DNA of 40,070 nt, from the IMG/VR virus record IMGVR_UViG_3300043137_000143; one strand, 5' to 3'. Made by a program: the position numbers and the translations under genes. Below, piece by piece: positions 3,436 through 30,948 of this stretch (positions are counted from its first letter, which is position 1; each line of letters begins with the position of its first letter). The stretch comes from a virus. The notes beneath the pieces were generated by a model, which saw only the letters and a list, made by a program, of their open reading frames with translations, was not told the origin of the DNA and made no database searches.

Positions 3436-3910
3436 ACCTGGACACGAACAGTACATCGGACGGCTTAGCATTCCGTATATTACGAAGACTGGCGTTGTCG
3501 ACCTTCGTTTCCGCTCTCTTAATCCTGCCGTTGAACCGAAGTATATGGGTATGGTTGGTAGCGATACTCGCATGTACAATGTACTTGACATTGAGATTGC
3601 TGGCGATTGGATTGGAGTCTGTGAGGGCGAGTTGGACACGCTTACTATGTCTCGCTTGGTTGGAATTCCCTGCGTTGGCGTTCCTGGAGCAAACTCTTGG
3701 AAGAAGCACTATACAAGACTTCTTGCGGACTTCGAGAGAGTCTTTGTCTTTGCCGACGGAGATGCCCCAGGCCGTGAGTTTGCCGCCAGTCTCGCTCGAG
3801 AGTTACCAGTCACAACAGTTACGTTTGGAGACGGAGAAGATGTTAACTCAGCATATATTAAATACGGCAAGGAATTCATCCAGCAGAAAATGGGGCTAAA
3901 CGTTGATTGA
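3257..3910 (+). CDS. DnaG-type primase, RNA-polymerase/TOPRIM part (+1 frame relative to 3061..3435)
   Basis: SLAEDYLESRGIT...GRLSIPYI, CEGELDTLTM (TOPRIM Glu) and VFADGDAPG (DxD). The only in-frame starts before the conserved region are TTG 3257 and GTG 3284, inside the zinc-finger ORF. Confidence 0.75.
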   Translation: MLRRKGAIYVKQSQSQKELLGRATSKYAGSISLAEDYLESRGITREVARLARLGVVEEPEPGHEQYIGRLSIPYITKTGVVDLRFRSLNPAVEPKYMGMVGSDTRMYNVLDIEIAGDWIGVCEGELDTLTMSRLVGIPCVGVPGANSWKKHYTRLLADFERVFVFADGDAPGREFAASLARELPVTTVTFGDGEDVNSAYIKYGKEFIQQKMGLNVD

Positions 3911-7308: not shown

Positions 7309-7700
7309 TAGTACCAACCTTTCCGTTCGTGAAACTTCCATGCCATACAAGGCGTGCCATACCTATGCATAATGTAGGCGAAGCCTCTGTCAATCTGTAA
7401 TGGTGCTGGTGTCTTAGGGTCTAACCCCAGTATCTGTGGGATACCGCCAGCATTCTTACCCATTACCTTTACCTTATTGTACGCTTCCGTTCGCCAGTTG
7501 GACTCCTGTGTCCATAGTTTATCTAAGCACTCGTACTGGTTAGCAGCCCAAGTAAGTACTACATCTTGAGCATAAGCCTTGCTATCTTCGATAGCCCATT
7601 CCCTTACTGGTAACGGAGTCTCCTCCGTTCGGCTAACCGAACGAGTAAACGCGAATAACACCACTGCTACAACTACAAGTGCAATTACTTTCTTGGTCAT
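7308..7700 (-). CDS. Secreted or membrane-anchored SLT-like lytic transglycosylase
   Basis: N-terminal signal anchor MTKKVIALVVVAVVLFAF, then CLDKLWTQESNWRTEAYN...GGIPQ...YGTPCMAWKFHERKGWY (E-S catalytic motif and GIPQ). Confidence 0.65.
   Translation of the reverse strand: MTKKVIALVVVAVVLFAFTRSVSRTEETPLPVREWAIEDSKAYAQDVVLTWAANQYECLDKLWTQESNWRTEAYNKVKVMGKNAGGIPQILGLDPKTPAPLQIDRGFAYIMHRYGTPCMAWKFHERKGWY
7625..7640. promoter_or_regulatory. Operon palindrome, copy 1
   Basis: gttcggctaaccgaac. It is intragenic, encoding RSVSRTEE of the SLT-like ORF. Confidence 0.6.
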
Positions 7701-8020
7701 ACTGGTACCTCAATCCAAGGTCTAAGCGCTCTGTAACTTATGAGTGCTCGTCCCTCATCAGATAATTTATTGAACCTCTTGCCAGTCATGATGACACGCT
7801 CACCTGCAAGTGTACCACCCCAGATGCCGAATGCCAAGTTTTCTGGTTGCATACCTTGGTCTAGACATTCCTCCTGTGCAGGGCATGAGTTACATAGGGC
7901 GATGGCCCTACCTGCCTCTTGTCCTATCGGTGCTAGTCGCTTGGGTGTGGGTGCGCCAACTGGCACCTCTGGATACCAAGCATCGGGGTTACTATCCCCT
8001 GTGCAGTTACCTCTAATCAT
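7697..8020 (-). CDS. whiB: WhiB-like Fe-S transcription factor
   Basis: C-x36-C-x2-C-x5-C followed by GIWGG. N-terminus CTGDSNPDAWYPE. The start is chosen at ATG 8020 behind GGGGAG; the track's 8056 start is a TTG. Confidence 0.85.
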   Translation of the reverse strand: MIRGNCTGDSNPDAWYPEVPVGAPTPKRLAPIGQEAGRAIALCNSCPAQEECLDQGMQPENLAFGIWGGTLAGERVIMTGKRFNKLSDEGRALISYRALRPWIEVPV

Positions 8021-8144
8021 CTCCCCACATCCTGTCTGGTTCTCCGTCGTAGTCAACTAGGTCGTCAAGTGTATCCTCGTCAAGTTCCTCGTACTCATCA
8101 TCTAACTCGAATACATCGTCATTCAATGGCGGTTCGTAACTCAT
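8013..8144 (-). CDS. Hyper-acidic small protein (43 aa, 20 D/E)
   Basis: Hand translation: MSYEPPLNDDVFELDDEYEELDEDTLDDLVDYDGEPDRMWGDD. TAATG coupling upstream, and its end overlaps the whiB start by 8 nt. Confidence 0.5.
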   Translation of the reverse strand: MSYEPPLNDDVFELDDEYEELDEDTLDDLVDYDGEPDRMWGDD

Positions 8145-8437: not shown

Positions 8438-8656
8438 CTATCCTGCGTTGTGCGAGGGTACAAATATACGGTACACCTCTACATTTGTCAATTCCTTACC
8501 CCACTCTAGGGCAAGTTCTTTGGTATCGAATGGTCCGTAGTGGACAAGTCCGTCTATGGTTTGTGTCGAGGTAATCCACCCAGCCACCCACATTCCTCTG
8601 AATGGGTCTGTCTGTTCGGTTAACCGAATACTAGAATCCGAAGTTGAAGTACTCAT
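8438..8656 (-). CDS. Hypothetical protein, start uncertain (8656 or 8593)
   Basis: The conserved-looking part is MWVAGWITSTQTIDGLVHYGPFDTKELALEWGKELTNVEVYRIFVPSHNAG. The track start at 8752 would overlap the amidotransferase gene by 122 nt. Confidence 0.5.
   Translation of the reverse strand: MSTSTSDSSIRLTEQTDPFRGMWVAGWITSTQTIDGLVHYGPFDTKELALEWGKELTNVEVYRIFVPSHNAG
8614..8629. promoter_or_regulatory. Operon palindrome, copy 2
   Basis: gttcggttaaccgaat, just downstream of the amidotransferase stop (8631-8633) and 20 nt upstream of ATG 8593. Confidence 0.6.
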
Positions 8657-9467
8657 TGTAGTAGCCAACCTTACCCTTCTTGTTAGATGCGTATCGGTCA
8701 GACTCAGGTGTCCAGCATAGGCAGGTATCTTGGTACATGCCATCGCAGTCATAGCAAGTAAAGCACATCTCGCAATAGTACGGATTAGAGTCTGCTTCTG
8801 CCGTACTTAGGCAGTGAGCGCAACCAACTGTCTCGTAATCATTACTGTCATTGAGTGCTACGGCAGATGACTTACTAGGCGTACCTAGATAGGTAGACCA
8901 TGATGATTGCTTGTAGGTAGAGTTAGACCACCACATGCCCTCATTGTCCCAGTGACCAGCAGTCTCGTTGACAATGTAGCATGTCTCCTTGGCGTTAGGG
9001 TCAAGCGTGAACACTACAATCTTGCTACCAGTAGACCACTTGCTAAGCATAGCCCATACATGGTCATCATCTAGCGCAGTGACACCACCCATGGCAGGTA
9101 AGGTATCCTCTGCAAAGATACGCGTGTCACTTCGTCGGTCGCCTGCACTGATGTTGATGTCAAGGATACCGTTGTGTGCAAGGTATGTATCGTGTGAGTT
9201 AGGCACTCGGAATGGGTGACAGTTGTCCTCATTCTTGACACCATGCGTAGCAAAGCGAGCATGGAACATAGCGTAACTATCTGGATACTGCTTGCGTACT
9301 TCTAGGAACTGCTTGATTACTTTCTTGCTTGACATGCCACGACCAGTGACAATGCCATTAGGTGTGACAACGGCAAAGCCGAAGCCATGCGGGTTATTAC
9401 ATGATGCACATTCCAAGTCCTTCTTACGAGGCGTGGAATTAGGCGAGGCTACAACGAGTAGGCACAT
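8631..9467 (-). CDS. Class-II (Ntn, Cys1) glutamine amidotransferase-like protein with a Cys-rich C-terminal tail
   Basis: MCLLV (Cys right after Met), HGFGFA, HARFATHG, CHPF, LAHNGIL. C-terminal CAHC, CEMCFTCYDC, CLC. Confidence 0.7.
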   Translation of the reverse strand: MCLLVVASPNSTPRKKDLECASCNNPHGFGFAVVTPNGIVTGRGMSSKKVIKQFLEVRKQYPDSYAMFHARFATHGVKNEDNCHPFRVPNSHDTYLAHNGILDINISAGDRRSDTRIFAEDTLPAMGGVTALDDDHVWAMLSKWSTGSKIVVFTLDPNAKETCYIVNETAGHWDNEGMWWSNSTYKQSSWSTYLGTPSKSSAVALNDSNDYETVGCAHCLSTAEADSNPYYCEMCFTCYDCDGMYQDTCLCWTPESDRYASNKKGKVGYYNEYFNFGF

Positions 9468-10720
9468 TAGTTGCTCACATTCTGTTCGGCTAACCGAACG
9501 ACTAGTTTATCTATACGGGCTGATAGTTCTGGATACAAGTCTTCATGTTGGAAGATGTACCACATGAATAAGTCTGCACTAAGCGCACCTTGCGCTACAT
9601 CTTGGACAGTAAGGGTTCGGGTGTACTCAACACTGGCATGTGCTAAGTCTAATTGGGCTTTGATAGTCTCACCGTTGACAGTACCTCGGAAGATACGCAT
9701 CTCTAGTGTCTCGCGGTTGTTGGTATTGACTGCTGAATAGCGGTCGCTATTGCGGTCAGGTTGCAACTTGTGCATGAAGGTACGCTTGGTCTCTATCTCA
9801 TAAAGCATGCCACTGCTCGGTGCTGCTTCTATGCGGTTGCCGTCAGCATCACGCTTGTACTCACGCTGATAGATGTCAGTGAACTTAGCCCATTGGTCAG
9901 ATGTCCGACCTGCTAGGGTCTGATAGAACTCAGGGTTAGAATACACAAGGTTAAGGAAGCGGTGCATGTGTGCGCCACCACTAAACCCAGTGCGTGAGAT
10001 GTGGATGTGTAAGCCACAAGTACGAGTATCCCATGACTTGACTCGATAGGTTGGATTAGTACGCAACTGCTCTAATACAGTCCAGAACTCTTGCGCTTCT
10101 TGCTTGAAGAAACCATGAGACATGGGATGCGTAACTATCTCGAACCCGTTATTAAGCGAGCCGTCATTCTTAAGATACGCTAGGTCTATTGCTTCTAGTT
10201 GCTGTGCATAAGAGGCAGATTCTAACTTGTTATCCCCTGCTTCTACCTCTATCTCTAGCCCGAAGTACAGACGCTCGTTCTTGTCGGTACTATGGAAGAT
10301 AGCATCAGGTCGGTATGAATAGTCATGAATGATGCGACCAGCACCATCATCATCACACCTATCGCAACCATCGGCATTGTACTCGTCGCAATCGTCACAC
10401 CAGTAAGCACCTCGGTCGGTGCAATCCTGACACCAGTGCTCACCTCTGTCTGCGACTCCGGAAGTGCCATTCGAGTTGTATTCCTCACATGACTCGCACC
10501 AATAGGCTCGTCTCTCGGTACATGATTCGCACCATAGATAGTCACCATCTACCATGTGGAAACAGTCATCAGTCGAGCCGATAGAGTCGCAACGCTGGCA
10601 AATCTGCACGCAATCGTCACACACTATACTGTCATACTCTGTATGAATGACATTATCGGCATCAATGTCGGTACTACACACCGCACATTCTGATGTCACT
10701 TTATCATTTACATCTGACAT
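9467..10720 (-). CDS. Amidoligase_2-family (glutamine-synthetase-like) enzyme with an N-terminal array of about four zinc ribbons
   Basis: YFGLEIEVE, NDGSLNNGFEIVTHP, CGLHIHISR, ETLEMRIFRGT. Eight CxxC pairs lie in the first ~125 aa. The stop overlaps the amidotransferase ATG (TAATG). Confidence 0.7.
   Translation of the reverse strand: MSDVNDKVTSECAVCSTDIDADNVIHTEYDSIVCDDCVQICQRCDSIGSTDDCFHMVDGDYLWCESCTERRAYWCESCEEYNSNGTSGVADRGEHWCQDCTDRGAYWCDDCDEYNADGCDRCDDDGAGRIIHDYSYRPDAIFHSTDKNERLYFGLEIEVEAGDNKLESASYAQQLEAIDLAYLKNDGSLNNGFEIVTHPMSHGFFKQEAQEFWTVLEQLRTNPTYRVKSWDTRTCGLHIHISRTGFSGGAHMHRFLNLVYSNPEFYQTLAGRTSDQWAKFTDIYQREYKRDADGNRIEAAPSSGMLYEIETKRTFMHKLQPDRNSDRYSAVNTNNRETLEMRIFRGTVNGETIKAQLDLAHASVEYTRTLTVQDVAQGALSADLFMWYIFQHEDLYPELSARIDKLVVRLAEQNVSN
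9484..9499. promoter_or_regulatory. Operon palindrome, copy 3
   Basis: gttcggctaaccgaac, in the last codons of the amidoligase (VRLAEQN) and 16 nt upstream of the amidotransferase ATG. The minus strand continues CCGAAC-AGA-ATG. Confidence 0.6.
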
Positions 10721-13167: not shown

Positions 13168-15033
13168 ATGGGACGCAAGGCTGGAAAACAGACGTATGGT
13201 AAGGAAGAGGCGCAAGCCAAAGTCCTAGCCCTACTAGAACAAGGTGCCACCGTCACCGCTGCTATGGCAGCCGTTGACCGCCAGGACACCGCCTTCCGCC
13301 AGTGGTCTATGGCAGATGCCGACTTCAAAGAGAAGGCTGATAAAGCCCGCCTTGCGGGTAAGGGCATCAAACAAGATTTAGCAGAACTTAAGGATATGCC
13401 TTTCCATGAGTTCTCAGAGCAGTTCCTAGACTCTAGGCTCTTTCCACATCAGTTGAACTGGATTGACCTCATTGAGGGTAAAGAACCTAGATGGCTACCC
13501 CCTGGTATGACTTATGAACCAGGAGACCCTAACCGTGTCTTGATTAACGTGCCACCTGAGCACGCCAAGTCAACCACTATCACGACTAACTACGTGACCT
13601 ACAAGATTGTGACCAACCCTAACACGCGAGTGATTATCGTGTCTAAGACTCAGGGTATGGCTCGCAAGTTCCTAGGCGCTATTAAGACGCGTCTTTCCCA
13701 CCCTGGCTACATGAAACTACAGACGGCCTTCGGCCCTAATGGTGGGTATAAGGCGGATGCAACACAATGGTCCGCCGACATGATTTATCTAGGCACAGGT
13801 CGAGATTCTGGTGAGAAGGACCCAACCGTTCAAGCCCTAGGCTTCGGGTCTCAGATTTACGGTGCTCGCGCCGACCTGATTATCCTCGACGACGTGGTGA
13901 TGGGTTCTAACGCCCATGAGTGGGAAAAGCAGATTGAGTGGCTGCAGAAGGAAGTTATCACCCGTCTGGGACGACATGGTAAACTTATTATTGTAGGTAC
14001 TCGCGTATCATCTGTAGATTTGTACAAGATGATTCGTGATGGTGGACAATGGACAGGTGGCAAAAGCCCCTTTACTTACTGCGCTATGCCAGCAGTTTTA
14101 CAGTTCGATGATAAACCTAAGAACTGGAAGACTCTTTGGCCTGAGACGGACCAACAGGAAAACGATTTAGATGAGGTTTTGGAAAATGGCTTATACCCGA
14201 AATGGGATGGACCCTCGCTCTTTAAGCGTCGCTCTGAGGTCGCTCCGTCTGTTTGGGCTATGGTCTACCAACAGGAAGATGTCCAAGAAGACTCAATATT
14301 CTCTCCAACCTGTGTGGCTGGCTCAGTCAACGGAATGCGAAAAAGAGGACCTCTAAAAGCAGGTACTCCTGGACATCCCCAACATGTTGAAGGTTATACC
14401 ATTATCGGTCTTGACCCTGCTATGGCAGGTGCTACAGGAGCGGTGGTTTGTACTTACAACCGAGCAGATGGACGTATCTACGTCCTAGACTGTGTGAATA
14501 TGACTGACCCAAGCCCAGCAAAGATTCAATCTTTGATTGAGGAATGGGTTGAGAAGTATCGTCCACAGGAACTGCGTATTGAAATTAACGCACACCAGAA
14601 GGCGTATGCCTTAGACGATGACTTAAGAGCATATCTTGCATCCTATGGATGCCAACTCAACTCTCACTTTACTGGCAAGAATAAATGGGACACGTCTTTT
14701 GGTGTTGCGTCTATGTCTATGCTATTTGGAAATACCAGAGATGGTAGATTCCAAGACAACAACATTATCGAACTACCAAGTAATGAAGGTTCTGAAGGTC
14801 TGAAGACCTTGGTACAGGAACTAATTACCTGGAAGCCAGATACTAAGAACCCAACAGACTGCGTTATGGCACTCTGGTTTGCTATTATCCGCATCCGCGA
14901 GATGATGCAACAGAGCAGTAATGCATCTAAATGGATGCAGAACCGCTGGACAACCCAGGCACAAGCATCTAGACGACATGCAGTAAATTTAGACGAAGCC
15001 TTTGCAGAGCAATGGTCGCAAACATACGGTTAG
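13168..15033 (+). CDS. terL: Terminase large subunit with an N-terminal small-terminase-like HTH extension
   Basis: Walker A-like PPEHAKST, Walker B LIILDDV and a GTR coupling motif, with a C-terminal nuclease-sized domain. The first ~65 aa (AQAKVLALLEQGATVTAAMAAVDRQDTAFRQW) look like an HTH. It is the first gene after the control region. Confidence 0.85.
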   Translation: MGRKAGKQTYGKEEAQAKVLALLEQGATVTAAMAAVDRQDTAFRQWSMADADFKEKADKARLAGKGIKQDLAELKDMPFHEFSEQFLDSRLFPHQLNWIDLIEGKEPRWLPPGMTYEPGDPNRVLINVPPEHAKSTTITTNYVTYKIVTNPNTRVIIVSKTQGMARKFLGAIKTRLSHPGYMKLQTAFGPNGGYKADATQWSADMIYLGTGRDSGEKDPTVQALGFGSQIYGARADLIILDDVVMGSNAHEWEKQIEWLQKEVITRLGRHGKLIIVGTRVSSVDLYKMIRDGGQWTGGKSPFTYCAMPAVLQFDDKPKNWKTLWPETDQQENDLDEVLENGLYPKWDGPSLFKRRSEVAPSVWAMVYQQEDVQEDSIFSPTCVAGSVNGMRKRGPLKAGTPGHPQHVEGYTIIGLDPAMAGATGAVVCTYNRADGRIYVLDCVNMTDPSPAKIQSLIEEWVEKYRPQELRIEINAHQKAYALDDDLRAYLASYGCQLNSHFTGKNKWDTSFGVASMSMLFGNTRDGRFQDNNIIELPSNEGSEGLKTLVQELITWKPDTKNPTDCVMALWFAIIRIREMMQQSSNASKWMQNRWTTQAQASRRHAVNLDEAFAEQWSQTYG

Positions 15034-15040
15034 GATACCA

Positions 15041-16813
15041 ATGGCATTATCAATGGAACAGGTTGCAGCACGCGTCGAAGCGTTGCGCTACCGTAATCAT
15101 GAACGAGATGCTCGTAATCTAAGCGTACTTGCAGTTCGTAAGGGACAAATTTCACAGGTCTACCCTGAGTTCTTCCCAGAGGGTGTAGATGCTAACGTAG
15201 TTGCTAACTTCATTGACGTAGTAGCACGTGACCTTTCAGAGGTTATGGCACCGCTACCAGCAATTAACTGCTCTGCTGCTAACTCCGTTAGCGACAAGGC
15301 ACGTAACTTCGCTGATAAGCGTACACGTATTGCTGCTAACTACTTCTCACACTCTGACCTATCAGTACAGATGTACTCAGGTGCTGACTGGTATCTAACA
15401 TATGGTTTCGTTCCTTTCATGATTGAATTGGACGAAGAAAGCAAGTTGCCGCGTATTCGCGTAGAAAATCCAATCGGGGCTTACCCAGAATTCGACCGCT
15501 ACGGACGCTGTGTGGCATTTGCAAAGCGCTACATGATGACTCTTGGAGAACTAGTAACACAGTTCCCAGAGTATGAGACTCAAATCCTTGGTCGTGACGG
15601 ATACACACAGGACCTGCACGCTCAGGTCGAGATGGTTCGTTACTACGATAAGGACCAGTCAGTAATTTACTTACCCAAGAAGGGTAATCTAGTTTTATCT
15701 CGCGCAGCCAACCCGCTGGGCAAGATGATGGTTGTCGTGGCGCGTAAGCCGTCTATTGATGGCGAGATGCGTGGACAATTCGACGACGTATTAGGTATTC
15801 AACTTCTTCGCAACCGTTTCGCTTTATTGGCAATGGAAGCAGCGGAGAAGAGTGTTCAGGCACCAATCGTATTACCACAAGACGTACAAGAACTCCAGTT
15901 GGGTGGCGATGCGGTTATCCGTACCGCCAACCCAGCGGGCGTTCGTCGTGTCGAATTAAACATTCCACAAGGCGCGTTCACGGAAGCACAACTCCTTAAT
16001 CAAGAACTTCGCTCAGGTACTCGTTATCCAGAAGGACGTTCTGGTAACATTGATGCAAGCATCGTTACTGGTCAAGGCGTACAAGCACTCATGGGTGCAT
16101 TTGATACACAGGTTAAGTCAGCACAGGCAATCTTTGCATCTGCACTACGCGATGTAGTATCTCTATGTTTTGAGGTAGATGAGAAGGTTTACGCAGAAGA
16201 AAAGACCATTCGTGGTGTTGACTCTGGTTCTCCTTACGAGATTACATACAAGCCAACTAAGGATATCAAGGGTGATTACTCTGCAGATGTCCGTTATGGT
16301 ATGCTCGCTGGTCTTAACCCAGCACAGGGACTTATCTTTATGCTACAGGCTCTTGGTGGAGGACTAATCTCCAAGGACATGGCAATGCGTGAACTACCAT
16401 TCACTGTCAATGTTACTCAAGAACTTGAGAAGATTGAAATCGAAAACATGCGTTCATCACTTCTAAGTGGTATTACTGCAATGGCTCAGGCTATTCCAGC
16501 AATGGCTACATCAGGTGGAGACCCATCATCTATCGTAACTAAAATTGCAGGAGTTATTAGCGCAAGGCAAAAGGGACAGGCTTTGGAAGAAGCAGTTGCT
16601 AATGTGTTTGCTCCTCAGCAACAAGTTCCTCCTGCTGGGGCGGCAACTTCTCCTGTTGAGCAGCCGTCCCCTGCTCCAGGCGCGGCTCCAGTAGGAGGCT
16701 CTCCCGCAGATATGGGAATGGCACCTCCAGCAGCAGCACCAGATATCCAAACTATTTTATCTACCCTTAGCGGTAGCGGCAAGGCAACGGGACGAGTAAC
16801 AACTAGGGGATAA
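15041..16813 (+). CDS. Portal protein
   Basis: About 590 aa directly after terL, with a P/A-rich C-terminal tail. The start is taken at the ATG behind AGGA just past the terL stop (the track start at 15002 overlaps terL by 32 nt). Confidence 0.75.
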   Translation: MALSMEQVAARVEALRYRNHERDARNLSVLAVRKGQISQVYPEFFPEGVDANVVANFIDVVARDLSEVMAPLPAINCSAANSVSDKARNFADKRTRIAANYFSHSDLSVQMYSGADWYLTYGFVPFMIELDEESKLPRIRVENPIGAYPEFDRYGRCVAFAKRYMMTLGELVTQFPEYETQILGRDGYTQDLHAQVEMVRYYDKDQSVIYLPKKGNLVLSRAANPLGKMMVVVARKPSIDGEMRGQFDDVLGIQLLRNRFALLAMEAAEKSVQAPIVLPQDVQELQLGGDAVIRTANPAGVRRVELNIPQGAFTEAQLLNQELRSGTRYPEGRSGNIDASIVTGQGVQALMGAFDTQVKSAQAIFASALRDVVSLCFEVDEKVYAEEKTIRGVDSGSPYEITYKPTKDIKGDYSADVRYGMLAGLNPAQGLIFMLQALGGGLISKDMAMRELPFTVNVTQELEKIEIENMRSSLLSGITAMAQAIPAMATSGGDPSSIVTKIAGVISARQKGQALEEAVANVFAPQQQVPPAGAATSPVEQPSPAPGAAPVGGSPADMGMAPPAAAPDIQTILSTLSGSGKATGRVTTRG

Positions 16814-16814
16814 A

Positions 16815-17381
16815 ATGACTACGTTAGTAGCGATACAAGGTGACGGTTGGTCGGTACTAGGGTGTGATTCACGTTTAAGTGATGAGCATGGTCGTTTTCA
16901 GATAAGCAAAACCCCCAAGATTGTAGATAACAACGGCGTATTAATTGCTGGTTGTGGCTCATCACGTGCTAGTAACGTGTTGCATTATGGTTATAAACAA
17001 CCTAAGCCTACTGCTCAAGAAGACTTAAATACCTACATGACACAGAAGTTCATACCAGCAATGCGTAAGAACTTTGTAGATGCAGGTATTGATATGAAAG
17101 AGGACGGCGATGTTGCACAAATCGATGGGGGATTCCTCATCTCGGTTAAAGGACAAGTGTTCTCGGTTTCTGAAGATTACTCTTGGGATACCGATGTTCG
17201 CAATGTATACGTTATGGGTAGTGGTGGCGATGTTGCCCTCGGCGCATTGGCAGCGTTGGGTGTGGAAAAAGTAAAGACAATTAACCAAGCGGAGACAATG
17301 ATTCGTAAAGCAATTGCTATTGCAATCCAATACGATAACATGTGCTCAGAACCAATTCATATCTTTAGACAATTTAAGTAG
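16815..17381 (+). CDS. HslV/proteasome-beta-like Ntn threonine peptidase at the prohead-protease position
   Basis: MTTLVAIQGDGWSVLGCDS aligns without gaps to E. coli HslV TTIVSVRRNGHVVIAGDG (Thr1, Gly10, Asp17). A Lys lies near position 33, with LIAGCGSS and MGSGGDVALGALAAL (the GSGG motif). Confidence 0.7.
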   Translation: MTTLVAIQGDGWSVLGCDSRLSDEHGRFQISKTPKIVDNNGVLIAGCGSSRASNVLHYGYKQPKPTAQEDLNTYMTQKFIPAMRKNFVDAGIDMKEDGDVAQIDGGFLISVKGQVFSVSEDYSWDTDVRNVYVMGSGGDVALGALAALGVEKVKTINQAETMIRKAIAIAIQYDNMCSEPIHIFRQFK

Positions 17382-17389
17382 GAGGAACA

Positions 17390-17851
17390 ATGGCTGTAGA
17401 GAATCGTGGCGGTGCCAACGGTGGACCGCAGTACAATCCTGCCAACGTTTCAGGTGTAGGCGGAGCAGGCCAGAGTGGCAATTACACTGGCTTTGCATAC
17501 GGACAAAACCAAGCAGTAAACAATCAGCGTATTGAGGGTAATCAAGCAGTGGCTACAACTAAAGCAGCAGGTATCCCTTCATCAGAAGCACCATACGGTG
17601 GAGTTAATATGTCACCTCTAGGTAGTTTGCTAGATGATACTACTAATCCAGCAGAACCAATTACTGCTGGTGTAGACTTTGGCCCTGGTCCTGGTTCAGA
17701 AGCGCTACCTCAAGGCTTCATGAATAACACTCGTCCAGATGAAAATGCAATGATTGTAAAGCAGTACTTGCCAGACTTGGCTATGGCTGCACAGTCTAAG
17801 GACGCTCCAGATTCATTCAAGCGTTTCGTTAACTTTTTATTGGCACAATAA
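17390..17851 (+). CDS. Hypothetical virion-module protein with a G/N/Q-rich N-terminus
   Basis: 153-aa ORF with an AGGAGG RBS. No motif recognised. Confidence 0.6.
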   Translation: MAVENRGGANGGPQYNPANVSGVGGAGQSGNYTGFAYGQNQAVNNQRIEGNQAVATTKAAGIPSSEAPYGGVNMSPLGSLLDDTTNPAEPITAGVDFGPGPGSEALPQGFMNNTRPDENAMIVKQYLPDLAMAAQSKDAPDSFKRFVNFLLAQ

Positions 17852-18060
17852 TGGCAGATGTATATTGGATGCCTGGAAGTCTGTTTGACAACATTGATAA
17901 GTTTGCCAACTCGCTTGGCTACCAGAATGCTGCAATAGCATTAGAACTTGCAATGATGCCTTGGAAGTCACCAGATGAGCGTGATGCTTTTATCACTGGA
18001 ATCACTGGCGAAGATGTCAAAGGTGGCACAGAGAAAAACTACATTAAACAAAATTTTTAG
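17851..18060 (+). CDS. Hypothetical protein
   Basis: 69-aa ORF with a TAATG overlap with the upstream gene. Confidence 0.55.
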   Translation: MADVYWMPGSLFDNIDKFANSLGYQNAAIALELAMMPWKSPDERDAFITGITGEDVKGGTEKNYIKQNF

Positions 18061-18069
18061 GGGGTAGCG

Positions 18070-21000
18070 ATGTCAGCATGGAACAAATTCACATCCGCTA
18101 TCTCAGGAATCCCTGTACTCGGAAAGCGCATTACAGGTGGTGGGGCTTACCTCAGCGATGAGGAACTTGCAAAAGAACGCGCACTTAACGATACAGTAAA
18201 GGGTGCTCTTGCAGAGTTGGACTTGATGTCTAACCCAGCAACTAAGTTGGCAAAAGATGTTACCAAGCAGGCTGCAGACTTCCTATTGGCTGGCGCAGTT
18301 AAACTTAATAACAACGTTATCTCTCCCTACATCACACGTCCAGCATCAACGCTTGGACTTCTAACTGATATTCAGTCTCCCCTTTACAAGAAGGGTCAGT
18401 ACGAAGAAGGCTTTCAGTTTAGTGACATCAAGGCTGCATACAATCGCAGTGCTAAGGTTTCAACATTCCAGGCTCTAACTAAGTCTGAACTGACACCAAT
18501 CAGTCTTCTATCTTCAATGGTGCTACCTGCTGGTGGTATTGACATGAACAAGGTTGACCTTTGGAACGACGAAAGTATCCAACAGAACTTTGTTGATAAC
18601 GCAGTTGGTCGTTGGTTTACAGGTATCGGTGACTTTGTTGTAGGCAACAAGGTATTCGGTGTTGCTGGTAAGGTTGTTGGCGCTAGTGCTAAGGCAGGCG
18701 CTAAGCCTCTAGGTCTTTACACTAAGGGTAAGACTGTAGAGAGCCTTGCAACAGACATGGAAAACGGCATTGTATTTGCCAAGACTGCTGGAGCACAGGG
18801 AACTCAAACTGTTTCTGGTTCACACATGGTCACTCTTGCAGAGTCAAGAGACTGGGGAGTTGTAGAAGATTTAGTTTCCAAGTACAGTACTAACGAAAAA
18901 CTTATCCCGCTTATCCGCGAAGCATCTGATGCTGACGCAGTTAAGGATATCATCCTTGCAGATAAGGGAAATGTTACAGCGCTAGAACGTCTTGCTGCTA
19001 CAGATAGCCACAAGTTGTTTATCGCTGGTAACGTACAAGCACAACTACAGAACAAGTTTATTCAAACTGGTGTAGTAGCACTCCCAGAGGGAGCGGCAGT
19101 ACCACGTTTACAGAAGGCATTTGACGATGCTATCAATGCAGACCCACAGTTCAAGAAACTAAAGGATGCATTCTTTGATGAGGATTACAGTCTAACTCCT
19201 GGCGGTAAGGCTTACATGCCTCTAGAGCCAATTGTTGGAACTAACCTTATTATCAAGGGTGAAGAGAAGATTCGTGGCGCTAAGACTGCGGTTCGTTCAC
19301 GCTTTGCTGATGCACCAGAATCTGCCAAGTGGTTTGGTGAAACAACACTAGGCTCAAAGACTAGCGGGCTCGCTATGCGCCTTGTGCGCCTTGTAGGGCG
19401 TGGCACAGAGGCCTTGCCTACTGGTTATGTATCTTTCTCTGGTATGCGCCCTATGCAGGCACGTACAGAACTCAACGGTTTCCTCAACAACATGAAGTTG
19501 TTCAGAGACGGTGCAGCAAAGATTGAGACATCTCCTAACGTCTATGAGCGTGTAGCAGATGTTCGTGCTCGCTTTGATGATATGTACATGTCTTCACTAG
19601 GTCAAGGACCAATTGCACAGGCTAACGCTCTTAAGGCTATCGATGCAGAAGTTGGAAAACTTCTATTCTACAAGGTTGGCATTTACGATGCAGATACAAT
19701 TGCTACATCTGTAAACACCTACCAAAGCAACGTAAGTCGTGGCATCCAATCTGTTCAGCGAAACGGCTTTGGTATTGCACACGATGGTAGCGCTATCTTG
19801 GTACAGCCTCAGACACTTCGTCAACTTGCTGACTCATACCGCTTTACACCATGGGATGACATTGAGAACCAAGTTGATATGGCGCGTAAGGCTGGAACTA
19901 CTGCTGGTAAGGCTATGGTTGGCAAGGATGCAGGTCAAGAATTTCTTGCACAACTCAACCGTGTATGGACATTTGACGTACTAGCACGCCCTGCGTATGC
20001 TTTCAAGCAGTCACTATTTGAGCCAATGATTAGCACTGGTCTTGCTTATGGACTTGACTTCGTATGGAACGATGTTATCAAGACCGCAGGCAAGGGTAGC
20101 GCATACAACGTTCGCAACTGGGTACGTGGAGTTGCTGTTCAAAAGGGCAACAGAAAAGAATTTGCAGAAGTCAACAGAGCCTTGCAAGATAAGGCAAAGA
20201 TGTACGAGAAGGCTCTTGTTATCAAGGAGTCAGCAGAAGCAACAGTAGCAGAACTGCTAACTAATGCATCTCCAGCAACCAAGTCTCAGCACTTGTCTGC
20301 TGCAACAAAGGACTTAAAAGCAGCATCTAAACTTCTAGATGATATTGAACTAGACTTGCGTACAGCAGCAGTTCCTTACGGACAGACTGCAGCGATTCCA
20401 AGTATTGCTACGCTTGAGCGTCGCGTTAAGTATCTTTCTGAGTATGAAGATGTTGATTTAGTTGCACTCAATGAAGCACAGGATGCTATTGACAACTATA
20501 GAAAAACTATTTCTAAACTAGCAACCAACAAGAAGGTCATCCAAGATGCTGACCAGGCTGTTCAGGATGCTTATGCAAACATTGACAAGATTGTCAGTGA
20601 ACTTGGTGATGCCGCTAAGCGACAAGCAGATGTACACGGTAAGACTGCAGAGTTCAAAGACCGTTACTATACAAAAGAAATGCAACACCGCATAGTCAAT
20701 GGACAGCATGTTTCAATCGACTCTTTTATTCAGGACCCAACAGTACCTGGGAAGAACTACTTCACTGCTGCTACTCGCGCAGAAGTACAGAATGCCCGCA
20801 CATCTGATATTAACTATCTAGGTGAGCAGTCAATCGGTATGCGCACAGCAGGCATCCAGCGCCTTGTTCCATCTGGAAAGGTTTCTGTAAGCGACCCTGA
20901 GTACTTTGAAGAGTTGGCTTACATTGCAAACCGTCAGTACCGTGGAGACCCGTTGATGGATTTAATCCTCAAAGAGACTTCAATGAAGGACTTGCAACGT

Positions 21001-23088
21001 TGGGCAGCAACTGATACTGGCCAGGCTTACCTACGTCAGTTTGATGTTTTTGATGCTAAGGAAGTTCCTGCTTACCTAGCAGACAAGGTATCTCTAGTCC
21101 AGCGTACGTTCCCATCATATGAAGCACGTGCTGCAATTCTTAAGGGTGAAGTTACTTCACAGCAATTGCAAAAGAACCTTGCTCCATACATGAACGACCT
21201 GTACGATATCGTTCCGTCACATCACAACTACATTGGTTCTACTTTTGGTTCAAGTTCTCTTTCTAAGGTAAATACCAAGTTTAACGAATTAGCGGCAAAT
21301 GCTTTCAGAAAACTCGCTGCATTTGAAAACCCAATTCGTTATGCTGCCTTTGATAAAGAGGCAATTGACATTGTTGCTCGTAAAGCAGATTACCTAATGT
21401 CACAGGGTGTAGAAATGACACCTGCTCGCTTTAACGCACTACGCCAGTCTGCTGGTCGTGAAGCATTGCAGAATGTAGAGAAGACTCTTTACACTATTAA
21501 TAACCCTAATCGCTTTATCAACTCATTGCGTCTTATCACAGCGTTCCCTGCTGCAAATGCTAACGCATTCTTGCGCTACGGTCGTCTTGCTGCTAAGTCT
21601 CCACAGCGTGCTGCTGGATTCATGTACAACTACGGTCGTACATTCCAGACATTCGGTGTAGATGAGAACGGTAATCCAACCAACGACATCAACAAGATTA
21701 CACACCTTGTTGTTCCTGGTACAAAGGATTTAGGTTTAGGTCCACGTGGAGAAGGAATTGCACTGAGTTCTCAGTCACTAGGATTCCTACTTAACCGACC
21801 AAGCCCATCGTTCATTACCTCGCTTTCAATTGGTAATGTCATGAAGTACTTCCCACAGAGCGAAGATGAAATTCAAGATTTCATGACAATCAATGGGGTT
21901 AACTGGTTCAAGGTTTACTTCCCATACGGAGCACCTACAAACGTAGGTAAAGCATTCGTTCCGCCTTGGTTGAACTCATTCTACAACGGTGTGATGGGTC
22001 CTGAGAGCAAGCAAGATTATTTAAGTTCTTGGAAGTCTGTTTACAACTACCATGCAATGCTCAATGAAATGGGTGTTACAGATGGTATGCCTTCTGATGA
22101 TGAGATTAGAAAAGAAGTTAAGGCTCTTTGGTTGACAAAGGCTTTTGCATCGTTCTCATCTCCATTTGCTGGTATTCCGTTTAAGACAGACACCAACCCA
22201 ATGGGTCTTACAACTAACCTGTACTACAAGTTACAGGAAAAGTACAAGGCACAGAACATGTCTAACCAGGATGCACGCGATGCAGCAGGCGAAGAGATGC
22301 TATCTCTACTTGGTCCTAAGTTTATGGTTGATAGAGTATCATTTACTGGTTCATCAAAGAACCTAAACATTCCAGCAACCTACGAAGCATACGAACGTAT
22401 CTTCGAAGATAACAAGGACCTAGTTGGTCGCTTGGCAAACATCGAGCCAGGTGAAATTGGTTTGATTGGCTTGATTACATCAGACCTAAGCCGTGACCCA
22501 GCAGAGCAGTCAAGCAACATTCTTAACCTACTTGGTAGCAAGGGATTAGTAATTCCTGGCACAAGTAAGCGAGTGAATGAACTACGACTTACTCCACAGG
22601 AGATTGAAACTGAGCGCATTAAGCAGCGCACATGGAACCAATACACTGCGGTACGCGAAGCACTAGAGGCTAAGATTACAGATGGTCAAACTCTTCGTGG
22701 ACACCCAGAACTAAAGGCAGCCCTTGATAAGGTTGTCGAGGGTCCACTTAAGGAAGCAAGCCAGGCTTGGTACGATGAGTTCCAATTCTCTGCTAGCGGT
22801 GATGCATCTTACAAGTACGCACGTGCGCTACAAGAAATTACTAGCGACAAGAACTTTATGAAGAGTCAAGGCGGTTCTACCTTCTGGAAGGACGCTCAGC
22901 AATTCTTAGAGTCTCGAGCAATGTTCACAGACATCTATCAAGCATTACCAGATTATGACCCACGTAAGGCAATCCTCAAGGACGGCTACAACTACTGGGT
23001 ACAACAAAATCTAGGTCAATGGGATGGAAACCTAAAGACAATAGTTATGCGATATTTTGACAATGATTCCCTAAAGGCGGTTAACTAA
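18070..23088 (+). CDS. Very large (1672 aa) virion-module protein, function unknown (internal/ejection protein candidate)
   Basis: An uninterrupted 5-kb ORF, about 12.5% of the genome, lying between the portal/protease genes and the scaffold/capsid genes. No catalytic motif recognised by eye. Confidence 0.85.
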   Translation: MSAWNKFTSAISGIPVLGKRITGGGAYLSDEELAKERALNDTVKGALAELDLMSNPATKLAKDVTKQAADFLLAGAVKLNNNVISPYITRPASTLGLLTDIQSPLYKKGQYEEGFQFSDIKAAYNRSAKVSTFQALTKSELTPISLLSSMVLPAGGIDMNKVDLWNDESIQQNFVDNAVGRWFTGIGDFVVGNKVFGVAGKVVGASAKAGAKPLGLYTKGKTVESLATDMENGIVFAKTAGAQGTQTVSGSHMVTLAESRDWGVVEDLVSKYSTNEKLIPLIREASDADAVKDIILADKGNVTALERLAATDSHKLFIAGNVQAQLQNKFIQTGVVALPEGAAVPRLQKAFDDAINADPQFKKLKDAFFDEDYSLTPGGKAYMPLEPIVGTNLIIKGEEKIRGAKTAVRSRFADAPESAKWFGETTLGSKTSGLAMRLVRLVGRGTEALPTGYVSFSGMRPMQARTELNGFLNNMKLFRDGAAKIETSPNVYERVADVRARFDDMYMSSLGQGPIAQANALKAIDAEVGKLLFYKVGIYDADTIATSVNTYQSNVSRGIQSVQRNGFGIAHDGSAILVQPQTLRQLADSYRFTPWDDIENQVDMARKAGTTAGKAMVGKDAGQEFLAQLNRVWTFDVLARPAYAFKQSLFEPMISTGLAYGLDFVWNDVIKTAGKGSAYNVRNWVRGVAVQKGNRKEFAEVNRALQDKAKMYEKALVIKESAEATVAELLTNASPATKSQHLSAATKDLKAASKLLDDIELDLRTAAVPYGQTAAIPSIATLERRVKYLSEYEDVDLVALNEAQDAIDNYRKTISKLATNKKVIQDADQAVQDAYANIDKIVSELGDAAKRQADVHGKTAEFKDRYYTKEMQHRIVNGQHVSIDSFIQDPTVPGKNYFTAATRAEVQNARTSDINYLGEQSIGMRTAGIQRLVPSGKVSVSDPEYFEELAYIANRQYRGDPLMDLILKETSMKDLQRWAATDTGQAYLRQFDVFDAKEVPAYLADKVSLVQRTFPSYEARAAILKGEVTSQQLQKNLAPYMNDLYDIVPSHHNYIGSTFGSSSLSKVNTKFNELAANAFRKLAAFENPIRYAAFDKEAIDIVARKADYLMSQGVEMTPARFNALRQSAGREALQNVEKTLYTINNPNRFINSLRLITAFPAANANAFLRYGRLAAKSPQRAAGFMYNYGRTFQTFGVDENGNPTNDINKITHLVVPGTKDLGLGPRGEGIALSSQSLGFLLNRPSPSFITSLSIGNVMKYFPQSEDEIQDFMTINGVNWFKVYFPYGAPTNVGKAFVPPWLNSFYNGVMGPESKQDYLSSWKSVYNYHAMLNEMGVTDGMPSDDEIRKEVKALWLTKAFASFSSPFAGIPFKTDTNPMGLTTNLYYKLQEKYKAQNMSNQDARDAAGEEMLSLLGPKFMVDRVSFTGSSKNLNIPATYEAYERIFEDNKDLVGRLANIEPGEIGLIGLITSDLSRDPAEQSSNILNLLGSKGLVIPGTSKRVNELRLTPQEIETERIKQRTWNQYTAVREALEAKITDGQTLRGHPELKAALDKVVEGPLKEASQAWYDEFQFSASGDASYKYARALQEITSDKNFMKSQGGSTFWKDAQQFLESRAMFTDIYQALPDYDPRKAILKDGYNYWVQQNLGQWDGNLKTIVMRYFDNDSLKAVN

Positions 23089-25974: not shown

Positions 25975-26093
25975 ATAGAATCCTGAACGGACCCATCGGC
26001 CCCGTCAGCGTAATAGACCGATAGCAAGAGCCAGCCTAGTTCCCCGACTAGCAACTGAGGCTTGCGACTACAACGAATAGAAGGGTGGTTGCT

Positions 26094-26570
26094 ATGAGCA
26101 ACAACTACTGGGATGACGAAGACGACGACCTCGATACAGAAACACCAATGGACGGCAGTGACTTATTAAAGAAGTTACGCAAAGCCAAGCGTGCGGACGA
26201 AAAGCGTATCAAAGAACTCACAGACCAACTTGAGACACTATCCAAGGGACAGCGTGAGCGAATCGTCAAAGAAACCCTAGAAAAGAAAGGTGTGAATCCT
26301 AAGGCAATTCGATTAGTCCTAAAGGACTTGGATGAAGTTAACGAAGAGACAGTGAATAACTGGCTCGATGATAACGCAGACTTGTTTGGACTAGAAGTTC
26401 GCCAGGATGCACCAGAAGTAAACAGCCAAAATCGTGCGGCACTACGCCAGCAAGACTTGGTTACTCAAGGTGCATTAACACCTGATAGAGCCGAAGACAT
26501 GGGTATGAGAATTGACAACGCAGAATCTGCGGAAGAAATCATCAACATGATTTACGGTTCACAAAACTAA
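26094..26570 (+). CDS. Scaffolding protein candidate
   Basis: About 158 aa, acidic N-terminus (DDEDDDLD), a charged helical middle, and a position directly upstream of the capsid gene. The ATG at 26094 behind AAGGG is preferred over the GTG at 26085. Confidence 0.6.
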   Translation: MSNNYWDDEDDDLDTETPMDGSDLLKKLRKAKRADEKRIKELTDQLETLSKGQRERIVKETLEKKGVNPKAIRLVLKDLDEVNEETVNNWLDDNADLFGLEVRQDAPEVNSQNRAALRQQDLVTQGALTPDRAEDMGMRIDNAESAEEIINMIYGSQN

Positions 26571-26606: not shown

Positions 26607-27560
26607 ATGGCTAACTCATACGTATCCACAGATTCTGCCTCTCTTGGCGGAACCGCTGGTGCAGCAGGTTTAGTACAGAAGGCTTATGACCGACTTCTCG
26701 AGTTCGCGCTCCGTTCAGAGCCACTCATTCGTTCAGTCGCAGATAAGCGTCCTGCTAAGCAAGCAACACCAGGTCAGACAGTAGTTCTACAGAAGTACGT
26801 AGACCTAACAGCAGCAACAACCGCTCTAACAGAGACAGTTGACCCAGATGCAGTAGCAATGTCTACACCAACATCTGTGACAATTACTCTTAACGAGTAC
26901 GGTAACTCAGTACTAGTTACACGCGCTTTGGAACTATTCAGCCTTGCTGACGTAGACCCAGCGATTGCTAACATCATCGCTTTCAACCTTGCAGATTCAA
27001 TCGACGCAGTTGCAATGACAACATTGCGCGGCGGTTCAAACGTAATCTACGCAGGTTCAACAGCAACATCAACAGCAACAATTACTGCTGCAGCAACACT
27101 ATCTTCTGCAAACATCCGCAAGGCTGTTGCGAAGTTGCGTGCTAACAAGGCAGTCGCTCGCAAGGGCTCACTATACTGGGCTGGACTACACCCAGAAGTT
27201 TCACACGACCTACGCGCTGAGACAGGTTCAGCAGGATGGTTGCTTCCAAACCAGTACGGTTCATCACAGGACCGCATCTGGGCGGGAGAGATTGGTACAT
27301 ACGAAGGTGCATACTTCGTAGAGTCACCACGTCTATACAACGCTACAGACGGTGCATCATCTGCACGTAACTACCGCACAATCATCGCAGGACAGCAAGC
27401 ACTTGCTGAGGCAGTTGCCGAAGAGCCACACGTGGTTATCGGACCTGTTGTTGACAAGTTGATGCGTCACCGCCCAATGGGTTGGTACGGCGTACTAGGC
27501 TTTGCTCGCTACCGCGAAGAAGCACTATACCGAATCGAATCAGGTTCATCAATCGCATAG
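26607..27560 (+). CDS. Major capsid protein (HK97-fold type)
   Basis: 317 aa located after the scaffold, with a strong-looking RBS and a stem-loop immediately downstream. The sequence resembles ~300-aa HK97-like capsid proteins (recall, not searched). Confidence 0.75.
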   Translation: MANSYVSTDSASLGGTAGAAGLVQKAYDRLLEFALRSEPLIRSVADKRPAKQATPGQTVVLQKYVDLTAATTALTETVDPDAVAMSTPTSVTITLNEYGNSVLVTRALELFSLADVDPAIANIIAFNLADSIDAVAMTTLRGGSNVIYAGSTATSTATITAAATLSSANIRKAVAKLRANKAVARKGSLYWAGLHPEVSHDLRAETGSAGWLLPNQYGSSQDRIWAGEIGTYEGAYFVESPRLYNATDGASSARNYRTIIAGQQALAEAVAEEPHVVIGPVVDKLMRHRPMGWYGVLGFARYREEALYRIESGSSIA

Positions 27561-29931: not shown

Positions 29932-29949
29932 CTATCAAAGGTGGGGACA

Positions 29950-30690
29950 ATGGCACAAGAGACAGTATCAGTGGCTTGGTGTGACAACGGCAACGTCGAT
30001 GGCAAATTTATGCAAGGCGTTGTCGATGTCATGCTCAAGTCTGGGGTTAAGTTTGAGACATCACTGCGTAGTCAGGGCAACCAGATTGCTCGTCAACGCG
30101 AGAAGGTAATCTCATATTGGTATGAAAACAACAAGTCTGATTGGCTACTCTGGGTTGACTCAGATGTGGTTATCAGTGTTGACAAGTTCAAACTACTATG
30201 GGATAGCAAAGATGCTGAGAAGCATCCAATTGTAACTGGAGTCTACTTTACAACAGACACGCCAGAAGACCCTCTAATGATTCCACTACCTACGGTATTT
30301 GAATTTGCAGAGTCAGATGGAGTGATTGGCATTCAGAGAATGCATCCACTACCAGAGAATAAGTTTATCAAGGTTGGCGCAGCAGGTATGGGATTCGTCC
30401 TAATGCACCGTAGCGCAATTACCAAGATTATGGAAGCAGTACCAGGCGCACCTATGTTTACAGAGGTTGGCGTTAACAAGTCTTTCATGGGTGAAGATAT
30501 TTACTTCTTCGCTCTATGCGATAAGGCTGATGTGCCAGTATGGTGTCACACAGGAGCAACCGTTCCTCACATGAAGCGGTTCTCGTTTGATGAGCATTAC
30601 TACAAGGCATTCTTCGGTGGCGTTAAAGAGGAAAAGAAATCCAAGTTAATTCTACCAGAACAAGGTTTGATTACACCTAAGAAGGGTTAA
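29950..30690 (+). CDS. GT-A fold (family-2-like) glycosyltransferase
   Basis: WVDSD (DxD), GAAGMGFVLMHR, GEDIYFF. The ATG behind GGTGGGG is preferred over the GTG at 29941. Confidence 0.6.
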   Translation: MAQETVSVAWCDNGNVDGKFMQGVVDVMLKSGVKFETSLRSQGNQIARQREKVISYWYENNKSDWLLWVDSDVVISVDKFKLLWDSKDAEKHPIVTGVYFTTDTPEDPLMIPLPTVFEFAESDGVIGIQRMHPLPENKFIKVGAAGMGFVLMHRSAITKIMEAVPGAPMFTEVGVNKSFMGEDIYFFALCDKADVPVWCHTGATVPHMKRFSFDEHYYKAFFGGVKEEKKSKLILPEQGLITPKKG

Positions 30691-30693
30691 ACA

Positions 30694-30948
30694 ATGGCAA
30701 CAGGCAAAGCAGGTAGCAGTCTAACAGCAGAACTCAATAGGCTTGCTGGAACGACTGGTCTTGATGAGCAAGGTGCAGCGAATCGTTGGGCAGGTACAAC
30801 TGGTTTAGCAACAGTTGGAGCACTCAACATCAAAGCATCATCATCACGCACACGTGATAAGTTTAAGGACATCGACGGTATCTGCAATGAACTTGCTGGA
30901 ACAACTGGATTAGCAGCCCCTGCTGCTTTAAGGAGCATCAACGCATGA
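30694..30948 (+). CDS. Small protein with three LAGTTGL repeats
   Basis: NRLAGTTGLDEQGAAN / RWAGTTGLATVGALN / NELAGTTGLAAPAAL. ATGA overlap with the next gene. Confidence 0.6.
   Translation: MATGKAGSSLTAELNRLAGTTGLDEQGAANRWAGTTGLATVGALNIKASSSRTRDKFKDIDGICNELAGTTGLAAPAALRSINA

Follow-up and report, generated by a model that had tools for sequence, protein, structure and literature searches.

A proteasome-type threonine peptidase encoded by an optional gene downstream of the portal gene in an actinophage

A 40,070-bp stretch of phage DNA from IMG/VR (record IMGVR_UViG_3300043137_000143), referred to below as the window, was analysed, and a gene for a proteasome-type threonine peptidase was found in the late operon, immediately downstream of the portal gene. 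The predicted active site is conserved, and closely related phages either carry the gene at this one position or lack it. The product is probably (at a rough probability of 0.55) an accessory, late-expressed, stand-alone peptidase of the self-compartmentalising kind, which would work in the cytoplasm, without an ATPase, on polypeptides that are unfolded or disordered.

Identification of the peptidase gene

A first-pass annotation, made from the sequence alone, had pointed to a 188-amino acid (aa) open reading frame (ORF) starting MTT straight after the portal gene, and had called its product a threonine peptidase resembling HslV and the 20S proteasome beta subunit. The ORF was confirmed at this location:

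16815..17381, + strand: Thr1 peptidase gene (proteasome-beta/HslV/BPH-like), 188 aa, no propeptide and no C-terminal extension

A single base separates its ATG from the TAA that ends the portal gene (16811-16813), and the last codons of that gene contain a purine-rich, Shine-Dalgarno-like AGGGGA (16805-16810). The translation has the N-terminus MTTLVAIQGDGWSVLGCDSR and also holds ISKTPKIV, LIAGCGSS and GSGGDVALGALAALG; the LIAGCGSS and GSGG...ALGALAAL motifs described earlier were both found in it.

The peptidase call is borne out by Pfam, PHROG, the predicted structure and the conserved active site. The Pfam model PF00227 (Proteasome), a check proposed in the first-pass annotation, matched above its gathering score over the full length (26.9 bits, cut-off 22.4; protein residues 2-182, positions 5-185 of the 189-position model), and PHROG 1040 ('peptidase HslV family') matched with E = 4.6e-23. 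A single-sequence phmmer search of PDB returned insignificant matches only, and a profile was needed. With a profile of 19 peptidase sequences, BPH (5ovu) was matched over its full length with E = 6.7e-7, and HslV (1m4y and 2z3a) at ~1e-6 (best 7.3e-7); the match to BPH is no better than that to HslV. The similarity to proteasome-type peptidases is well beyond chance.

The first 19 residues had been reported to align without gaps to Escherichia coli HslV, with Thr1, Gly10, Val13 and Asp17 conserved, and this holds. An hhalign comparison with E. coli HslV gave a probability of 48% and a one-residue shift at the Lys33 loop; HMMER alignments, not hhalign, were used for the Lys33 assignment. In the HMMER alignments to BPH and Bacillus subtilis CodW, Lys35 of the window protein falls on the catalytic Lys33, in agreement with the earlier placing of a Lys near position 33 in ISKTPKIV.

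When 1.84 billion representative proteins were searched with the peptidase profile, 5034 clusters (50% identity) were found at E <= 1e-3, and 37 viral structure matches to the peptidase were also found, indicating that phage-encoded proteasome homologues are widespread.

Active site residues and predicted structure

Conservation of the active site was counted over 122 sequences, comprising the window protein and 121 full-length representatives that share <50% identity with one another. The relevant codons, all on the + strand, are:

16818..16820, + strand: Thr2, the predicted Thr1 nucleophile once the initiator Met is removed; Thr in 115/122, Ser in 7/122
16866..16868, + strand: Asp18, equivalent to proteasome Asp/Glu17; Asp in 115/122, Glu in 6/122, invariant in the close family
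16917..16919, + strand: Lys35, equivalent to the catalytic Lys33; Lys in 122/122, aligned by HMMER to Lys33 of BPH and CodW
16956..16958, + strand: Gly48, equivalent to the oxyanion-hole Gly47; Gly in 119/122
17217..17228, + strand: GSGG motif, Gly135-Ser136-Gly137-Gly138 (proteasome Ser129/Gly130 region); Gly135 and Gly137 in 122/122, Ser136 invariant in the close family
17082..17135, + strand: long acidic 'pore loop', residues 90-107, DAGIDMKEDGDVAQIDGG, between helix H2 and the next strand; from the AlphaFold2 model and the BPH alignment

In alignments of the close family, T2, D18, S19, R20, K35, G48, G135, S136 and G137 are invariant. Among ~150 representatives the N-terminus is MTT in 84 and MTC in 25, and because nearly all begin M-T and align from residue 1, a propeptide is absent. 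Methionine aminopeptidase would remove the initiator Met, exposing Thr1. Judged from these alignments, the residue pattern is that expected of an enzyme under selection for catalysis. The Thr1/Asp17/Lys33 triad, the oxyanion-hole role of Gly47 and the GSG loop have been described previously (PMC8665760, section 3.3).

An AlphaFold2 model built with 26 homologues (pLDDT 89.2, pTM 0.87) has the alpha-beta-beta-alpha sandwich of N-terminal nucleophile (Ntn) hydrolases with helices H1-H4, in which H2 comprises residues 71-89 and is followed by strand E107-111. The 188 aa make up the catalytic fold alone, with no insertions and no S12/H5 elements. A comparison of a predicted structure with HslV had been suggested previously, and the fold proved to be proteasome-like: the 50 best PDB matches identified by Foldseek were exclusively HslV, BPH and 20S beta subunits, at a probability of 1.00. 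The highest TM-score was to BPH (0.75), versus 0.63-0.68 for HslV. The region around the pore loop (residues 86-108) carries a net charge of -5 and is acidic in 40/40 relatives inspected, and in the HMMER alignment with BPH (5ovu) the loop falls on the pore loop KEDEDD.

Relationship to known proteasome homologues

In IMG, these proteins are labelled 'ATP-dependent protease HslVU peptidase subunit'. This is over-specific for the window peptidase, which was rejected as HslV proper on its scores against the NCBIfam equivalogs (15.5 bits vs 157.75 for TIGR03692 and 16.2 bits vs 137 for NF003964). The protein resembles HslV (ClpQ/CodW) in its fold, its catalytic residues and its mature N-terminus TT, but it falls far below these cut-offs, is not accompanied by HslU among the window ORFs scanned, and its pore loop is long and acidic. 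The pore linker of HslV is short and basic (Arg86, Arg89, Lys90) and is controlled by HslU (PMC5777263). No match to an AAA+ unfoldase was found among the larger ORFs of the window that were scanned, the sole P-loop protein being a DnaB-type helicase. HslV has no Actinobacteria entry in Table 1 of PMC8665760, and HslU is not expected in Actinobacteria, the host phylum of this phage. Any activity of the peptidase would be independent of HslU because the host phylum lacks it.

The closest structural analogue is BPH (PDB 5ovs and 5ovu; PMC5777263). The two share Thr1 without a propeptide, the lack of an associated unfoldase, a compact group-I fold without the C-terminal helix H5, and a pore loop that is elongated, acidic and located at the corresponding site, in addition to the full-length profile alignment and the best TM-score. 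However, their identity is only ~17%, and BPH is from Betaproteobacteria whereas the window peptidase is from an actinophage. BPH is a tetradecamer, and a comparable assembly of the window peptidase is predicted by analogy. The long acidic pore loop of BPH is thought to stand in for regulation by an unfoldase (PMC5777263, PMC8665760).

Phage proteasome homologues were already known (PHROG 1040; PMC8665760), as was the HslV label in IMG, and the window peptidase is a further member of this described class. The phage-borne types PPH, AAH and CPH were described in 2021 by Fuchs, Alva and Lupas (PMC8665760). Like these types and PHROG 1040, members of which occur in VpV262, pT24, D'Alembert and other phages, the window peptidase is a group-I protein of a tailed phage with no propeptide, and it belongs in 'group I' of the Fuchs et al. 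classification, the HslV/BPH/AAH radiation. It is not a PPH, which has ~140 residues and no H2 (PMC8665760), as opposed to 188 residues with H2 present in the window protein. The compact group-I features, with neither insertions nor S12/H5 elements, are shared with AAH and CPH by description. The 2021 survey found no Actinobacteria-specific phage encoding AAH (PMC8665760), and an actinophage-borne proteasome homologue with a cultured host is modestly new, being the category that this survey lacked for AAH.

Presence and absence of the gene in related phages

The window is a ~40-kb phage genome segment with 46% GC and no tRNA genes. It includes a gene that bears on its host:

7697-8056, - strand: WhiB gene

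The closest relatives in GenBank, with portals 81-86% identical to that of the window, are Planktophila phages LanE43AprE7 (E7) and F5 (GenBank accession numbers OX376640 and OX376641), which were the first phages to be isolated on 'Ca. Nanopelagicales' (acI) (PMC10202952). As WhiB is present and the closest isolates infect 'Ca. Planktophila' (acI), the window is from an actinophage, a WhiB-carrying podophage that belongs to the same family as E7 and F5. Streptomyces podophages of the Beephvirinae come next, their portals being 43-45% identical to that of the window.

Close relatives of the peptidase are encoded at 549 or more IMG/VR loci, and the family, two members of which (E7 and F5) have been cultured on 'Ca. 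Planktophila', is very abundant in lakes. A survey of how often the gene follows a portal gene had been called for in the first-pass annotation. Among the 80 best loci, the peptidase gene is directly after the portal gene in 79/79 that include upstream sequence. The peptidases at these loci are 86-97% identical to that of the window and are as conserved as TerL and the portal protein, whereas the giant protein encoded downstream is 50-75% identical. Sequence conservation of this order shows a peptidase that is under strong purifying selection.

Constant placement did not extend to constant presence. In a survey based on the portal protein, the peptidase was absent from 11/11 Beephvirinae-like loci with enough downstream sequence and from 7 aquatic loci with portals 74-80% identical to that of the window. 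At the latter loci (L142, L150, L154, L161, L163, L165 and L167) the slot is occupied by an ORF of 73-85 aa (e.g. L163, 5286-5513), followed by the usual 130-140-aa protein and then the giant protein. The small slot protein is conserved and has a basic N-terminus, the consensus being roughly ..RK(R/K)..TV.D..YS.L..Y.I.L.EYYKSL.KAGF..

Eighty loci were fetched around the portal type of this sister lineage, with flanks of <=10 kb on each side, as far as the contigs reach. No peptidase homologue was found in the fetched DNA of 36 aquatic sister loci, 7/36 of which have >=8 kb upstream, while the divergent F5 protein, used as a positive control for the search, was detected at 1e-52. The gene was immediately after the portal gene, and never elsewhere, in 41/41 sister loci that carry it. 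The portal of the non-carrier lineage is up to ~92% identical to portals of carrier phages; at the nucleotide level carrier and non-carrier portals reach ~90% identity, and the flanking modules cannot be aligned, which shows strong mosaicism around the portal gene. In a comparison of L173 with L206, L233 and L218, the portal gene shares ~90% nucleotide identity while TerL shares ~65%, and 9.4 kb downstream of the portal gene is unalignable before ~94% identity resumes.

The peptidase pairs with at least 5 mutually unrecognisable types of giant protein, and one giant-protein type is shared by a carrier (L013) and two loci that lack the peptidase (L173 and L198). The presence/absence polymorphism and the lack of a tie to either the portal allele or the giant type indicate that the gene is an optional cassette at a fixed site. 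As far as these genome comparisons go, the peptidase is evidently dispensable for building this kind of virion. Such a clean natural polymorphism in close relatives is modestly new and makes the function testable.

The giant proteins themselves (1500-1700 aa, PHROG 10618; 18070-23088 in the window) fall into at least 5 types at the same position next to closely related portals, as seen in L002, L006, L013, L038, L173 and L206. Only the C-terminal third of the window giant protein aligns, weakly, with the 1635-aa protein of Beephvirinae.

A scan of bacterial genomes for the peptidase returned 5 metagenome-assembled genome (MAG) contigs only, apparently mis-binned phage DNA, and no cellular relatives. 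The bin labels of these contigs (L009-L013, GTDB) are Burkholderiaceae, Saccharimonadales, Methylococcus, Nanopelagicaceae and Actinomycetota. As the contigs are probably mostly mis-binned phage DNA, MAG labels are unreliable for host assignment.

Genetic context of homologues in other phages

Homologues in more distant phages occupy other positions. In Vibrio phage VpV262, the replication arm, which is opposite the structural arm, has at its end a gene annotated as 'peptidase HslV family', the length of which agrees with that of a 186-aa protein of this phage found by fold matching. The homologue in Actinomycetia phage DSL-LC01 (34% identity) is among small genes, beside whiB, and those in Psychrobacter phage D'Alembert and Arthrobacter phage Pitbull are amid small early-type genes. 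In L011, a different WhiB-carrying actinophage contig, the homologue (56% identity) is found between a KTSC-domain gene and a tail-fibre-like gene, just upstream of the latter and not in a head module. HslV genes without HslU have also been reported in phages in a study of Salmonella jumbo phages (PMC7823757).

Late operon and the prohead protease position

The first-pass annotation held that the position after the portal gene is where a prohead protease should be, and suggested a novel protease for capsid maturation or scaffold removal. The late operon of the window has the order TerL, portal, peptidase, 153-aa, 69-aa, 1672-aa, 311-aa, 649-aa, 161-aa scaffold-like and 317-aa capsid protein, and includes the following:

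15002..16813, + strand: portal gene; Pfam SPP1_portal, PHROG 104
17390..23088, + strand: downstream late genes for a probably partly disordered 153-aa protein (PHROG 8200), a 69-aa protein and the 1672-aa giant protein (PHROG 10618)
26085-26570, + strand: scaffold-like gene, 161 aa; PHROG 7813, aligns to the annotated Dennebes scaffold
26607-27560, + strand: major capsid protein gene, 317 aa; PHROG 1357 'major head protein', 1.7e-81

The genes at 17390..23088 keep their order in the family and are hypervariable in sequence. The scaffold and capsid genes are 9 kb downstream of the peptidase gene, past the presumed internal-virion and tail genes. A scan for promoters and terminators found nothing above chance around the peptidase gene or until after the capsid gene, and the sole convincing intrinsic terminator is 3' of the capsid gene.

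The portal ORF as listed begins at a TTG (15002) that overlaps TerL. Homologues begin MAL(T/S)(I/M)EQVAARVE, so that translation probably starts at the ATG at 15041, 7 nt past the TerL stop. The C-terminus of the portal protein (16600-16810) is a ~70-residue Pro/Ala-rich low-complexity tail, and the N-terminus of the 153-aa protein (17390-17600) is a Gly/Asn/Gln-rich low-complexity stretch; both are possibly disordered.

Beephvirinae have a late plan of portal, small ORFs, a 1635-aa protein, scaffold and capsid, with no peptidase. The window capsid is 55% identical to that of Dennebes (Beephvirinae) from end to end (317 vs 320 aa), and because it aligns end to end with a capsid made without the protease, it would have no extra propeptide. 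On this comparison, the head type appears to be one that uses a separate scaffold and a capsid protein with no extra propeptide, and it follows that the expectation of a protease after the portal gene does not apply. Assembly of T7- and P22-like heads is protease-less and comparable to the head type of the window.

Neither proposal about the prohead was supported. Beyond the conserved position after the portal gene, no sign of packaging into the virion or of cleavage of virion proteins was found. The scaffold and capsid genes are separate and distant from the peptidase gene, and relatives with the same head genes lack it; a role in capsid maturation or scaffold removal is not supported by the absence of the gene from Beephvirinae and aquatic sister loci or by the occurrence of homologues in non-structural regions elsewhere. 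A prohead protease would be conserved in all phages that share the head module, but the gene is missing from the 11/11 Beephvirinae-like and 36 aquatic loci described above. No canonical prohead protease was found by Pfam or PHROG among the window ORFs scanned, and the peptidase itself has no S78, U35 or ClpP match in these databases. Prohead proteases (HK97 gp4/Peptidase_S78 (U35), the ClpP-like S14/S49 enzymes, and T4 gp21/herpesvirus assemblin) differ from the window peptidase in fold and in using Ser/His rather than a Thr1 Ntn mechanism, and the peptidase gene is not next to the scaffold and capsid genes and encodes no capsid-targeting tail. Position downstream of the portal gene in a late operon is shared with these proteases, and nothing else. 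For annotation, a post-portal position alone is no sign of a prohead protease.

Proposed function and alternatives

In the favoured reading, a stand-alone cytoplasmic peptidase, removal of the initiator Met would expose Thr1, and this residue would cleave by the usual mechanism of proteasomes, together with Asp17, Lys33, the GSG loop and the oxyanion hole at Gly47. Subunits of 20 kDa may assemble, as those of HslV and BPH do, into two stacked rings (12 or 14 subunits in total) that enclose the active sites. Regulation by an unfoldase would be replaced by the long acidic pore loop, as in BPH; the particle would be independent of HslU, and its substrates would be peptides or polypeptides that are unfolded or disordered. 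In this reading the gene is transcribed and translated along with the late structural operon, is coupled in translation to the portal gene, and is an accessory cassette that phages may lack, inserted at one fixed point outside the head-assembly machinery. The most likely role would then be cytoplasmic proteolysis late in the infection of a streamlined actinobacterial host. Possible targets are unfolded host or phage proteins (e.g. spent scaffold), which may be cleared or recycled, or a host factor that may be removed.

Several points weigh against this reading. BPH was inactive in standard assays (PMC5777263), and cofactor independence of the window peptidase is for this reason an assumption. 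In the literature searched, neither biochemical work nor virion proteomics was found for any HslV-like protein of a phage. Expression alongside the virion genes in the late operon would be no worse a fit for a morphogenetic role than for a host-directed one. In F5 the slot holds a homologue that is only 27% identical and is still directly after the portal gene, and the fixed post-portal place hints at a tie to the portal or head-internal proteins, or at a recombination hot spot. Absence of the gene from the non-carrier lineage is judged on <=10 kb of sequence on each side of the portal gene.

It is conceivable, though unlikely, that the phage supplies a catalytic core to a host AAA+ unfoldase (ARC/Mpa, Cpa, ClpX or ClpC), so as to degrade specific host proteins or titrate the unfoldase. 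HslV and 20S cores normally require an ATPase for protein substrates (PMC5777263), other phages have HslV-like genes but no HslU (PMC7823757), and an optional accessory gene suits host interaction. However, the host phylum is not expected to have HslU, the pore loop, being long and acidic, resembles that of the partner-less BPH and not that of HslV, an alpha-ring on which ATPases of the HbYX type could dock would be lacking, and late expression is ill-suited to host takeover.

A morphogenetic protease is also rather unlikely. It would be recruited to proheads, for example via the portal, and would trim or remove the scaffold, the portal tail, the 153-aa protein or the giant internal protein. 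The placement of the gene immediately downstream of the portal gene, to which it is translationally coupled, at every carrier locus (79/79 and 41/41), the retention of this position by the divergent F5 homologue, and late-operon expression are in keeping with such a role, as are the lack of a canonical prohead protease among the window ORFs scanned and the long low-complexity, probably disordered stretches of neighbouring proteins, which a proteasome-like enzyme could digest. However, close relatives with the same layout of portal, small proteins and giant protein lack the peptidase, and Beephvirinae without it have an orthologous capsid of the same length. The peptidase does not co-vary with a candidate substrate, given the five or more giant types and the one type that occurs with and without it. 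Its 188 aa comprise the catalytic fold only, leaving no capsid-targeting extension, and homologues elsewhere are in non-structural regions. Proteasome-type particles are, moreover, processive and do not cut at defined maturation sites. The morphogenetic role retains a small share of the probability because a recombination hot spot is the only other explanation for the invariable post-portal place.

A similarly small chance is given to a portal-associated, head-internal proteasome-like particle that digests disordered internal or scaffold proteins in the prohead or is delivered to the next host. If present, it would be the first morphogenetic or virion-borne tailed-phage protease of the threonine (T1) family, and the gene would be optional since alternative internal-protein modules do without a peptidase.

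The first-pass annotation had also raised the possibility of an effector packaged inside the capsid with internal proteins, which would be ejected and degrade host proteins early in the next cell. The location of the gene between the portal gene and genes for presumed internal-virion or ejection proteins is consistent with this, but such an effector is improbable. A particle of ~230-280 kDa would be too large for the portal channel, so that subunits would need to be ejected unfolded and reassembled; there is no targeting extension, no supporting virion proteomics was found in the literature searched, and in other phages the gene is in non-structural arms.

Least of all is the protein likely to be a non-hydrolase in vivo, either a sequence-specific transpeptidase or ligase like connectase, a ligase reported to have arisen from the proteasome fold (PMC7980362), or a catalytically silent structural protein, as the lack of protease activity of BPH in vitro (PMC5777263) might suggest: the connectase-type helical insertion between S3 and S4 is absent and both helix pairs are present (PMC8665760, section 3.3), while the full proteasomal catalytic set is invariant.

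Other features of the window

Two genes at 8631-10720 (- strand) encode an Amidoligase_2 protein (PF12224, 417 aa, E = 2.1e-9) and, beside it, a 278-aa protein with weak matches to class-II glutamine amidotransferases (GAT-II), which are also Ntn enzymes. The amidoligase/GAT-II pair is found in the relatives L006 and L008 as well, and distant homologues are present in cluster-S mycobacteriophages. A 'tag-and-degrade' link between the amidoligase and the peptidase was considered and rejected, as E7 and F5 carry a peptidase with no amidoligase match and cluster-S mycobacteriophages have the amidoligase without the peptidase. At the 17 loci with >=8 kb of upstream sequence, the amidoligase is present in 6/10 peptidase carriers and 0/7 non-carriers; the association is weak, phylogenetically confounded and not obligate.

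The window also encodes sigma-70-like, DnaB-like and DnaG-like proteins. The DnaG-type primase appears to be split (3061-3910), with a CHC2 zinc ribbon ORF at 3061-3435 and an overlapping Toprim ORF at 3257-3910 in another frame, which could represent two genes, a frameshift or a sequencing error. Further genes in the late region encode a glycosyltransferase (29941-30690; PHROG 34859), an SU10-type adaptor protein (30945-31883; PF24175) and a Gly_rich_2 domain protein (35814-36572; PF21722).

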